DNA from: Staphylococcus phage PT1028
DNA length: 15,603 bases
Sequence record: AY954948.1
Direction: 5' to 3' (one strand)
The number at the start of each line of letters is the position of its first letter. Positions within the stretch are counted from its first letter, which is position 1. The position numbers and the translations under genes were made by a program. Below are positions 11,960 through 14,722 of the stretch, piece after piece. The notes beneath the pieces are model-generated. The model ran no database searches. It saw only the letters and a program-made list of their open reading frames with translations, and was not told the origin of the DNA.

Positions 11960-12340
11960 ATGGATAAAGAGCAACTTAAAAAGTATATATACGATTATGT
12001 AAAAGAATATAAGGAGATACCGATATATCAGTTAGAAGATTTGTTTAAAGAAATGAATCACGACTATATAGGGAGAACCAGTGTCACACACGATAAGGAT
12101 GAGAATATTGTGTTTTGGAGTGGATGGAACAAAATTACAATGTTTGCGCTGATTGAATTAGTTAAAAGTGAACAACTTGATTTAGTGTATAGAGGTAGTT
12201 TTGTAATGCGTTATTTGTTGGATGGTAGAGTTCCTAACTTACCATTAGCAATTTGTTATCCAGAAGATGGACAACAAACGGACGTGCCCTCATGGGTGCC
12301 TATGGTATTAAGAATAAATAAAGAGGAGAAAATCAAATGA
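11960..12340 (+). CDS. Hypothetical protein, first gene after ori
   Basis: 126 aa, with a GGAGGT RBS. Its stop overlaps the next start (ATGA). Confidence 0.5.
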   Translation: MDKEQLKKYIYDYVKEYKEIPIYQLEDLFKEMNHDYIGRTSVTHDKDENIVFWSGWNKITMFALIELVKSEQLDLVYRGSFVMRYLLDGRVPNLPLAICYPEDGQQTDVPSWVPMVLRINKEEKIK

Positions 12341-12846
12341 ACATAGAAACTATCGTAAACCAATTTGAAACACGAGCAGGCACGTTACTAAGGTACTACA
12401 CAGGATTATTAGAACATAGTAAAGTGCAACCATGTTGCTTTAAGCCTTATTGGGATTATATACAACCTAATGGCAACATTTCAGTTATTGCGTCAGTGAC
12501 ATTCTTAATAGCGAGTTTGGAATATTTAAAAGAAAATGGAAGAGAATTTAAATTTAAGGATGTAACGCTCAAGTATTATTTTAATGAAGATGAATTGACT
12601 GAAACTCAAATTACTATGATCAGATTGTTATCAAAACAGGGCTTTATATTAGCAGGCGATGAAACTTTACAACGCTTGATAGAACAAGATTACTCAAGTT
12701 TACGTTACAAGAACGCTAAAGAAGATATGAGAAAGATTGGTATTAGTATAAATAATCAGAAGTGGATTGATGGTGTTAATACAAAGGTGCATCAAGTCGG
12801 GAACAAAGAACTTTTTAATATGGCTTTAGAATTAATTAATGATTAG
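12337..12846 (+). CDS. Hypothetical protein; N-terminal 36 aa shared with the ORF at 14081
   Basis: 169 aa, with GAGGAG upstream. MNIETIVNQFETRAGTLLRYYTGLLEHSKVQP is near-identical to the start of the 14081 ORF. Confidence 0.5.
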   Translation: MNIETIVNQFETRAGTLLRYYTGLLEHSKVQPCCFKPYWDYIQPNGNISVIASVTFLIASLEYLKENGREFKFKDVTLKYYFNEDELTETQITMIRLLSKQGFILAGDETLQRLIEQDYSSLRYKNAKEDMRKIGISINNQKWIDGVNTKVHQVGNKELFNMALELIND

Positions 12847-13016
12847 GGTTAGAAATAACTCTTGCTAACCTTTGTTATAACCTATGAATCGTTGTAATAA
12901 CAGTCACTAACTCTTATAGCCTAAGTTTTATTTAGTAATCTATAATTATTTAAATTTAATAAAGGGTTATAGGTAAAAAAATGGCTATAAGGGTTAGTTT
13001 TAAAAGGAGGAGTTCA

Positions 13017-13820
13017 ATGACTGGTTATCATGTAGCAAAAAAATTATTAAAAAAGAATATTGAAGTTATACCACTAAATAATCACAAAAAGCCAACTGTT
13101 TCATTTGCTGATAAAGATATTACCGATGAATTCATTGAATATAATTCTAATATTTATCATAAAACAAATGTATTAGGCGTATTAACACGAGGTGTATGGT
13201 GTATCGATATTGATGTAGATCATGAAGATGGTAAGAATGGTTTCAATAGTTTGAAACAAATACCATATTACGAAGAACTTGTTACCAATGCACAAAATAC
13301 ATTAGTACAGACAACGGCAAGTGGTGGGAAACATATCATATTCAAAAAGCATGACAATATCGAATACGGACAGAAGATAGGTTATTTACCATCTGTTGAT
13401 ATCAAAGCACATCCCAATAATTATTTTGTGCTTGCAGGTAGTCAAACAGCTAAAGGTATATACACTCATAACGGTGTCAATGTAACTGAGTATCAAGGAG
13501 AGTTTGAGAAACGAATATTTTCTAAAGCTGGTAATTACAAACAACAAGTATTAGAGCCATATTCCATTCGACGAGTACTACCTAATTATAGTTTTAGTCA
13601 CGTAAGAGTTGGCAAAGGTGGAGAAGGAAAACGTGCATATCAACGCATTATAGACGGTCAAAGTGAATATAGGAACAATGATTTATATAAAGCAGTAAGT
13701 TATGCGATTCAATGTAACGTAGATATTGAGCCGTTACGTGTATTGATTGGAGATAATAAAAACGGCGATGTATTTACGGAGAGAGATTGGGAGGCGACTG
13801 TTAGAAGTGCAAGCCGTTAA
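13017..13820 (+). CDS. Archaeo-eukaryotic-type primase-polymerase (Prim-Pol) domain protein
   Basis: AAGGAGG 7 nt upstream of the ATG at 13017 (the track start at 12981 is in-frame upstream). Motifs VIPLNNHKKP, WCIDIDVDHEDG (DxD) and TTASGGKHIIF (SGGxH) match the Prim-Pol catalytic signature. Confidence 0.6.
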   Translation: MTGYHVAKKLLKKNIEVIPLNNHKKPTVSFADKDITDEFIEYNSNIYHKTNVLGVLTRGVWCIDIDVDHEDGKNGFNSLKQIPYYEELVTNAQNTLVQTTASGGKHIIFKKHDNIEYGQKIGYLPSVDIKAHPNNYFVLAGSQTAKGIYTHNGVNVTEYQGEFEKRIFSKAGNYKQQVLEPYSIRRVLPNYSFSHVRVGKGGEGKRAYQRIIDGQSEYRNNDLYKAVSYAIQCNVDIEPLRVLIGDNKNGDVFTERDWEATVRSASR

Positions 13821-14079
13821 AGAGGATTACAATTTAGACGAACAAGCTCAAAGGATTGGTTTAATAACTGGTATATCTAACGAAATATACTATTGTTCAA
13901 TAAGTTATTTATCAACGGTTTATTTAGAATATATTGATAACACTTGGACTGCATGGCGTGAGAGTTATATTCCTAAATTAAATAAAAGAACAAGTTACAA
14001 AGTTATAGCTTCAGGAAGTTTTGAATTAGTGCTAGCTAGATTAAAGAGTTATTTAAATTATATAAAAAGGAGCAAGTGA
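13747..14079 (+). CDS. Hypothetical ORF overlapping the Prim-Pol 3' end; possibly its C-terminal extension via frameshift
   Basis: 110-aa ORF in the +1 frame relative to Prim-Pol. It has a TTG start and no RBS. The 74-nt overlap contains an A5 run (13754..13762). Confidence 0.3.
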   Translation: MEIIKTAMYLRREIGRRLLEVQAVKEDYNLDEQAQRIGLITGISNEIYYCSISYLSTVYLEYIDNTWTAWRESYIPKLNKRTSYKVIASGSFELVLARLKSYLNYIKRSK

Positions 14080-14080
14080 T

Positions 14081-14722
14081 ATGAACATAGAAACTATTGT
14101 AAACCAATTTGAAACACGAGCAGCCACGTTATTAAGGTACTACACTGGATTATTAGAACATAGTAAAGTACAACCGTATTGCTTTAAGTTATATAATGAT
14201 CCGTTTGATATGTGTTATGTGGTGATGAATAGTAAGTTGTTTGGTCATGTATATATTAAAGATTGTAAAGTAAGGCAATCATTTGAATTAGCGTCACCTA
14301 AGCACACTGAGGGGCTTATAAGAAGCATAGAAGGTCATTATGTAGGTTATGAATTACATGATGGTAAACAGCTTTCTATTAGTGATGTGATGGCCAGTCA
14401 ATTATTTGAAGATGAGTATTTTATGTATGGATTACAAACATATGCAGAATCAAATAATAGTGATGTGTTTGAGTACCTAGAAAATGGATTTGATACAGAT
14501 ACACTTGAGGGCATTCAGTCAAGTAATACTGATGTGATATCGAATATTGAAATGTTGTATCAGATAGCTACGGGAATCAATGAACCAGCACCAGAGTTAG
14601 TTGAGGGATTAAAATTAGTAACTGAGTTTGTACAAGATGAGAAGGCTACACAAGAGGATTACAAGGCTTTAGAACGTAAGTTAACTGAGTTGAAGTCATC
14701 TTATTACAGTTTGAATAAGTAA
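14081..14722 (+). CDS. Hypothetical protein; paralog of the 12337 ORF at the N-terminus with a different C-terminal domain
   Basis: 213 aa, with an AAAGGAG RBS. The first about 36 aa are near-identical to the 12337 ORF, then the two diverge completely. Confidence 0.5.
   Translation: MNIETIVNQFETRAATLLRYYTGLLEHSKVQPYCFKLYNDPFDMCYVVMNSKLFGHVYIKDCKVRQSFELASPKHTEGLIRSIEGHYVGYELHDGKQLSISDVMASQLFEDEYFMYGLQTYAESNNSDVFEYLENGFDTDTLEGIQSSNTDVISNIEMLYQIATGINEPAPELVEGLKLVTEFVQDEKATQEDYKALERKLTELKSSYYSLNK

Follow-up and report, generated by a model that had tools for sequence, protein, structure and literature searches.

The 15,603-nucleotide sequence of Staphylococcus phage PT1028 (sequence record AY954948.1), called the window throughout, is a staphylococcal pathogenicity island (SaPI) with a complete replication module, and the subject of this text is the segment at positions 11,960 to 14,722, which begins with the last gene of that module and continues with a truncated copy of a replication module of another type. 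The identity of the island was drawn from its open reading frame (ORF) map and from family scans, and the two allelic modules are designated type A and type B, names that are our own. The complete module of the window is of type A, and the segment behind it contains the following features:

11960..12340, plus strand: orf126, the final gene of the type-A module (phrog_7134; ori_A, the type-A origin, always precedes it in type-A islands).
12306..12444, plus strand: repeat copy 1, consisting of the ribosome-binding site and the first 108 nt (36 codons) of a type-A orf213 allele, as assigned by identity to type-A islands.
12337..12846, plus strand: chimeric ORF of 169 aa, in which orf213 residues 1-36 are joined in frame to residues 405-537 of the type-B helicase (Pfam, PHROG and helicase alignment).
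12439..12444, plus strand: recombination junction at the 6-bp microhomology TTTAAG, where the type-A alignments end and the type-B alignments begin.
12847..13016, no strand assigned: ori_B, an orphan iteron origin located directly after the helicase stop codon and marked by its motif density.
13017..13820, plus strand: Prim-Pol (AEP) primase of 267 aa, cognate to the type-B module (PF09250; phrog_695; motifs).
13807..14079, plus strand: orf90, with a GTG start, overlapping the end of the Prim-Pol gene (phrog_20734, 1.2e-51).
14050..14188, plus strand: repeat copy 2, consisting of the ribosome-binding site and the first 108 nt of the complete orf213, as given by the repeat alignment.
14081..14722, plus strand: complete orf213, a member of the Pfam family 'SAPI' (PF16560, 1.2e-116, full length).

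A first-pass annotation of this DNA had drawn attention to two direct repeats of about 93% identity that form the 5' ends of two genes, and to a Prim-Pol between them in an island that already has a pri-rep-ori module. These observations hold. The genes pri (9047-9925) and rep (9939-11648) and an iteron origin (11648-11940) precede the segment, the repeats open the ORFs 12337-12846 and 14081-14722, and 12337-12444 agrees with 14081-14188 at 101 of 108 positions (93.5%), or at 91% over the 114 nt compared originally. Past 12444 the identity drops at once to 29%, the random level, and among 200,000 random pairs of 108 nt taken from the window the best reached 51%. A weaker upstream stretch of 31 nt (12306-12336 against 14050-14080, 71%) spans the ribosome-binding sites, and the longest perfect run shared by the two copies measures 25 bp. 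Copy 1 is identical at 108 of 108 positions to orf213 of the type-A islands L011, L013, L014, L017, and L020. Because it matches the type-A gene perfectly but copy 2 of its own island at only 101 of 108 positions, the direct repeats are, judged by these identities, two parental alleles of the orf213 5' end and not the product of an insertion, as had been proposed.

The left edge of the foreign block coincides with the hexamer TTTAAG, which is present both in orf213 (codons 35-36) and in the type-B helicase gene (codons 403-404). All type-A loci match the window to exactly 12444 and again from 14050, and all type-B loci match it from exactly 12439 on, unbroken through Prim-Pol, orf90, orf213 and further. 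The right boundary of the block is the native orf90-to-orf213 order of type-B islands. The junction sequence had no match in IMG/VR, and a megablast of 11900-14800 against the phage collection gave no match either.

Comparison with related islands revealed that in S. aureus islands the slot between tscT and orf213 is occupied by either of two interchangeable modules. In type A the order is pri, rep (DUF927), ori_A, and orf126, and in type B it is an SF3-type helicase (537 aa), an iteron origin of 170 bp, Prim-Pol (267 aa), and orf90; orf213 comes after the replication module in both island types. Type-A islands (L011-L018 and L020) lack the block 12445-14080 but are otherwise nearly the same; in them orf213 follows orf126 directly, and they thereby display the 'empty site'. 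The type-B module of S. aureus, with a helicase of 537 or 538 aa, is the only replication module of many islands at rpsR, smpB, groEL, and other sites; in the islands examined it always lies between tscT and orf213, it is complete in L021-L040, and in all of the approximately 20 type-B loci examined Prim-Pol is found 3' of ori_B. Type-B islands that bear the same PemK-integrase arm as the window also sit at the same rpsR site. The module is also the sole one in many islands of coagulase-negative staphylococci. In S. pasteuri (L001) and in Staphylococcus sp. ACRSN (L002) the island runs from an integrase, a repressor, and several small genes to a helicase (534-538 aa), a non-coding stretch of about 170 bp, Prim-Pol, and a small ORF, and positions 12439-14070 of the window align to the stretch of both loci that comprises the helicase end, the origin, Prim-Pol, and the small ORF.

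The composition of the 169-aa ORF follows from its family matches: aa 1-41 correspond to the N-terminus of the 213-aa Pfam family SAPI (PF16560) and aa 34-165 to positions 404-540 of the 541 positions of phrog_5609 ('DNA helicase'), and the helicase part was confirmed by alignment with 537-aa helicases. What remains of the helicase are its last 133 residues, which lie wholly C-terminal to the ATPase core; the Walker A motif (residues 274-279 of the complete protein) and the P4-type core (residues 195-381) are gone, and the second module of the window is without an initiator possessing an intact ATPase core. The complete type-B helicase looks like an SF3 (P4-type) helicase, given a sub-threshold match to TIGR01613 (P4-family primase_Cterm) over the same residues 195-381 and a weak match to DUF5906. 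Searches against PDB sequences with the single sequence and with a profile returned nothing meaningful and matched no solved chain, and the protein could not be matched with any of the three Rep prototypes of the literature consulted. Having matched none of the solved helicases of SaPIs and SCCmec in sequence, it may represent a Rep prototype not previously described; literature searches found no paper on the hybrid or on the type-B module. AlphaFold2 models of the complete helicase (predicted local distance difference test score, pLDDT, 33.6) and of the 169-aa chimera (pLDDT 43.2) are too poor for use because the alignments are shallow. Among 1.84 billion representatives the helicase C-terminal domain occurs in only 26 clusters, which show no clear stand-alone members, the short proteins resembling fragments.

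At NCBI the type-B helicase (L021 9001-10614; homologues P0231-P0350) is labelled 'phage resistance protein'. This name looks misleading because PADLOC gave no match and because the helicase occupies the position of rep. The defence-system reading that the name invites was rejected, as PADLOC returned no defence-system match for six proteins, namely those of this region and the type-B helicase.

Directly behind the helicase stop codon lies ori_B, in which an AT-rich spacer separates five direct copies of NTAACY (12856-12912) from two inverted copies of GGGTTA (12963-12997). In SaPI origins the iterons are located directly downstream of rep and are bound by the C-terminal domain of Rep, and an AT-rich centre is flanked by opposed iterons on either side (PMC9371898). 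The same elements are found here, with iterons immediately 3' of an initiator gene, an AT-rich centre, and opposed iterons, and the density of TAAC/GTTA peaks at ori_B, with 9 occurrences in 177 nt versus a window background of 2.3 (standard deviation 1.6). Compared with the origins of complete type-B islands, ori_B of the window differs by 1 nt. In S. pasteuri (GTAACC) and in Staphylococcus sp. ACRSN (GTAACT) the positions of the iterons are kept but their sequence is changed, and such lineage-specific iterons at kept positions would be expected of a co-evolving initiator-iteron pair. By analogy with the characterized SaPI initiators, the C-terminal domain of the type-B initiator would bind its cognate iterons (PMC9371898, PMC7581432).

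The Prim-Pol encoded next to this origin matches PF09250 with 38.5 bits, above the gathering cut-off of 22.8, over residues 20-162 of a 279-aa ORF; the start at 13017 agrees with the 267-aa length of more than 100 homologues. Its DxD and SGGxH motifs are intact, as the first-pass annotation had read them: in an alignment of 22 sequences reaching down to 28% identity the motifs D64xD66, S102-G-G-x-H106, and D128 are conserved, with D64, D66, G104, and D128 invariant and S102, G103, and H106 nearly invariant. The best sequence match to a solved structure is the prim-pol domain of pRN1 ORF904, which is weak (profile E 0.25) and has the motifs in register. SaPI primases belong to the AEP family (PMC7581432), and between Pri_A, the primase of the type-A module, and Prim-Pol no similarity was detectable by BLASTP (E 0.11), though both match phrog_695. 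The protein is 97% identical to P0001 of a type-B island, and its ratio of non-synonymous to synonymous substitution rates (dN/dS) against type-B copies is 0.08-0.22. For most comparisons with type-B copies dN/dS is 0.08-0.28, and from such values selection that preceded the fusion cannot be told from selection that followed it. The gene orf90 follows Prim-Pol in all type-B islands, those of coagulase-negative staphylococci included, and by loose analogy its product could be an accessory subunit of the primase, comparable to the small MP partner of CCPol in SCCmec. No terminator was found on the plus strand in 11600-15300, a promoter and terminator scan gave nothing above the shuffled expectation, and an Rfam scan of the window was without a match.

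These data make it probable that the segment is a recombination scar, left when the distal part of a type-B module was grafted onto a type-A island. We infer that two collinear islands underwent an unequal crossover at TTTAAG, which would have placed codon 405 of a type-B helicase behind codon 36 of the type-A orf213; type A would accordingly have supplied the left arm, and type B everything to the right, starting with helicase codon 405. The product of such an exchange would contain the whole type-A module, the 169-aa fusion, an intact ori_B, an intact Prim-Pol, orf90, and the complete second allele of orf213, and the island indeed possesses two origins, two AEP primases, and one complete initiator. 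Replication of the island would proceed from ori_A by means of Rep_A, the type-A initiator, and Pri_A, and ori_B, whose initiator has lost its ATPase core, would be unable to fire alone. Prim-Pol would still be expressed from the rightward operon, given its strong ribosome-binding site and the lack of a terminator before it, and it is probably an active, redundant second primase. Such redundancy is consistent with the dispensability of the SaPI primase for replication that is reported in PMC7581432, citing Ubeda 2008. The block would persist because the repeats, being short and diverged with no perfect run beyond 25 bp, do not readily delete it, and it would be tolerated in an island of the normal SaPI size of 15.55 kb. 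The block is most likely a neutral or redundant relic. Prim-Pol itself is the ordinary cognate primase of a common alternative SaPI module, and all that is unusual is that a truncated copy of this module follows a complete one of type A.

The hybrid is real and has spread, as it is found in many assemblies, with two packaging modules and two flanks, and it has recombined further. Proteins identical to the 169-aa product are found in 31 indexed blocks of the assembly collection, from which 24 contigs were read; the hybrid is present in 24/24 contigs read that bear the Stl of the window, and it occurs with two different packaging (capsid-size) modules and with two chromosomal flanks. The same island with the same PemK-integrase arm has the rpsR flank in most assemblies and HisKA_3/ABC-transporter genes in others (L005 and L032 versus L003), the latter flank suggesting a second integration site or a chromosomal rearrangement.

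A sister lineage (L008 and L009), whose islands match the window at 99.8% identity to either side of the junction, carries a different join. Its protein P0111 (188 aa, L008 10001-10567, indexed in 92 blocks) connects codon 72 of orf213 to helicase residue 422, in frame and at the 6-bp microhomology GCGTCA (window 12490-12495), and it likewise leaves only the C-terminal domain of the helicase; the join is 51-108 bp from the junction of the window, and the direct repeat of these islands is longer, at 247 bp. Neither the 169-aa nor the 188-aa form can be derived from the other by simple deletion. As origin of the second junction we favour a further homology-anchored illegitimate exchange with a type-A island at the boundary of homology and heterology; two independent crossovers of the same parents are possible.

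Other shortened forms of the type-B helicase were seen as well. In L010 (8218-9830, complete genome CP094799) the gene is split by a frameshift into ORFs of 70 aa and 395 aa. P0112 (229 aa, starting with 'MDE-FYGADIAH', 126 member sequences) was considered as a third in-frame deletion and rejected; by reading of the protein sequences only, it is better explained as an ORF that follows a frameshift in a T-run of a helicase gene. These split or frameshifted ORFs reflect either decay of the initiator or homopolymer sequencing errors.

Several points weigh against a single crossover that left a neutral relic. Two in-frame junctions so close together are unlike a single neutral accident; selection may have acted on the fusion product, or a further exchange anchored by homology may have taken place at the same boundary. 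No decay is visible in Prim-Pol, orf90, or ori_B, although the low divergence on this branch does not allow relaxed and purifying selection to be told apart. Neither parent was recovered, type-B sequences matching at 93-95% identity at best, and since both types share orf213 and the DNA that follows it, a single crossover is not distinguishable from an illegitimate event combined with a homologous one. The first of these points leads to the proposal that selection keeps the block for competition between satellites or for hitch-hiking. The 169-aa protein, as a stand-alone origin-binding domain of the type-B initiator Rep_B, would together with ori_B titrate or block type-B SaPIs, or, in a variant, ori_B would be replicated in trans by the Rep of a co-resident type-B island, with Prim-Pol priming there. 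Both junctions retain precisely the C-terminal domain and both are in frame, but this argument is weak, as two in-frame junctions have a chance of about 1 in 9. The near-perfect agreement of ori_B with the origins of functional type-B islands and the rpsR site shared with those carrying the same PemK-integrase arm are in line with competition, and lambda origin fragments are reported to inhibit phages of the same replication specificity (PMC3349717). However, the structure models are too poor to confirm a DNA-binding fold, the C-terminal domain does not form a widespread stand-alone family, and the lineage is recent and partly clonal, and we regard either variant as unlikely. About equally unlikely, in our estimation, is that both junctions arose by independent deletions from a real tandem island with both complete modules, driven by the packaging size of small capsids. 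Such an ancestor would measure about 18 kb compared with 15.55 kb here, it would account for two junctions of which neither derives from the other, and L019 (scaffold JABUAA010000003.1, GCA_013344105.1) appears to show an island of this kind. Yet this locus has an N at position 4786, stretches of 77 nt are duplicated exactly at two of its joins (4709-4863 and 13548-13702), and at the A-to-B join (9436/9437, 77-mer 9437-9513) the modules abut without overlap, both starting with the same 77-mer. Because of the N, these contig-overlap duplications, and the abutting modules, L019 was rejected as the ancestral island and is probably an artefact in which a scaffolder concatenated two alternative paths of the assembly graph; no other island with both modules was met among the look-ups of helicase_B, orf126, and Stl.

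The insertion proposed in the first-pass annotation, in which a mobile Prim-Pol cassette entered by homologous recombination between the repeats of about 110 bp and served an accessory role such as helper-independent priming or phage interference, is very improbable. The repeats and the Prim-Pol are real, the island does contain a second intact AEP primase, and the block is absent from type-A islands. The block, though, begins within the helicase gene at a 6-bp microhomology and ends in the native type-B order, its genes are arranged as in a standard replication module and include no recombinase, and its repeats are different alleles of one gene. It is not a stand-alone Prim-Pol cassette but the distal part of a complete alternative module (helicase C-terminal domain, origin, Prim-Pol, orf90), it was never met as an independent unit elsewhere, and PADLOC gave no match. 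The presumed rarity of a satellite with a Prim-Pol is also not upheld, as SaPI primases have been published as AEP family members (PMC7581432) and the type-B module is common. An assembly artefact could be suspected because the window is circularly permuted and the related locus L019 is itself artefactual, but the identical junction recurs in many independent assemblies, with contigs up to more than 1 Mb, and shows no k-mer duplication, which makes this explanation the least credible of all. The recombination scar composed of a type-A island and the distal part of a type-B module is the preferred reading.

The other parts of the island belong to the following features, of which the first three were assigned from the ORF map and the family scans:

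5420-6634, minus strand: integrase.
6933-7667, minus strand: Stl-like repressor.
8453-8991, upstream of pri: TscA/TscT pair.
9047..9925, plus strand: pri_A, AEP-type primase with a C-terminal PriCT_1 (Pfam PriCT_1 1.2e-10; phrog_695 3e-34).
9939..11648, plus strand: rep_A, full-length DUF927 initiator helicase (Pfam DUF927 6.9e-37).
11648..11940, no strand assigned: ori_A, with GTTCCC/GGGAAC iterons, directly 3' of rep_A, as assigned by the iteron positions.

Relative to an island integrated beside rpsR in S. aureus, the window is circularly permuted: positions 4350-15603 followed by 1-4402 correspond to L003 2014-17669 at an identity of 99.8-99.96%, and the ends overlap by 53 bp (4350-4402), which is probably the att repeat or core. 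The deposited sequence looks like an excised and circularised, or a computationally circularised, form. Against PDB sequences rep_A is essentially identical to 8TCH (E=0) and related to Cch (5DGK, the SCCmec helicase, 5e-14), matches that place it by homology in the Rep2/SaPIbov1 type of PMC9371898 and PMC7581432. The ori_A iterons GTTCCC lie at 11652, 11661, 11672, 11739, 11748, 11888, and 11930 and their inverted counterparts GGGAAC at 11695 and 11844, and the stop codon of orf126 overlaps the start of the next ORF (ATGA). The packaging genes are located past the segment and wrap round to the start of the window.

Beside the integrase lies a gene for a 265-aa protein with a PemK_toxin domain (4599-5396, minus strand), which together with TscA/TscT makes two toxin-antitoxin-like elements within one 15.5-kb island. 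A non-coding gap of about 535 bp (14723-15257), kept in both island types, separates orf213 from the gene that opens the packaging operon (15258-15599); it had no match in Rfam and is presumed to be the control region of operon I. A 217-aa ORF (27-680) fills the cpmA/cpmB slot of the packaging operon, and sister islands with the same left arm (L004 and L031) carry cpmA/cpmB instead. Residue 21 of its predicted product is Arg, which fits the R21* mutant of Rcm (ORF7) of SaPIpT1028 in PMC12409344, and the window may represent that island or one closely related to it.

As a recombination scar, the segment documents the exchange of SaPI replication modules at base-pair resolution, it illustrates that an unequal crossover at a microhomology can leave an island with two origins, two primases, and one initiator, and it draws attention to a common staphylococcal module of an unfused SF3 helicase, an origin, Prim-Pol, and orf90. 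If the block did serve competition between satellites, its fusion protein would be a natural dominant-negative initiator fragment in the rivalry of islands that share the rpsR attachment site and their helper phages and compete for both, and the in-frame junctions would reflect selection. Homology-facilitated illegitimate recombination is known from transformation of S. pneumoniae and Acinetobacter, in which one side of the exchange uses long homology and the other a microhomology of 3-10 bp, and SaPIs are mosaic elements. The junctions described here resemble the products of this process, which would yield hybrids of modular elements, to judge from the junction sequences alone.

With regard to known systems, the type-B module is similar to those of SaPI1, SaPI2/SaPIbov1, and SaPI5 (Ubeda 2007/2008; PMC9371898) in that an initiator helicase carries a C-terminal domain recognising iterons directly after its own gene, the AT-rich centre is framed by opposed iterons, a primase of the AEP family is adjacent, and the module lies between the regulatory genes and the packaging operon. 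It differs from them in its order (rep, ori, primase, orf90, as against pri, rep, ori), and its helicase has no sequence match to solved chains, whereas Rep_A matches 8TCH and Cch. The second module of the window departs further from the known SaPI modules, since it comprises an origin and a primase without a working initiator. Its Prim-Pol resembles pRN1 ORF904, the prototype of PF09250, in the Pfam match and in the conserved DxD, sGGxH, and hD motifs, but it is a small stand-alone protein (267 aa) without a fused helicase and its activity is predicted; its C-terminal third weakly resembles the PriCT region of Pri_A (E 0.11). The type-B helicase is reminiscent of the Cch2/PriRep5-type SF3 (P4/D5 'Primase_Cterm') helicases of SCCmec and SaPI5 (PMC7581432), based on the sub-threshold TIGR01613 and weak DUF5906 matches, on a length of 537 aa similar to that of the Cch2 construct, in which residues 400-538 form the C-terminal domain, and on a C-terminal domain of about 130 residues that is followed by iterons. 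In contrast to the Cch2/PriRep5 group, however, it scores below the family cut-offs and has no PDB sequence match to PriRep5, and its primase is encoded by a separate downstream gene, whereas in the PriRep5 type the primase is fused to the helicase at the N-terminus.

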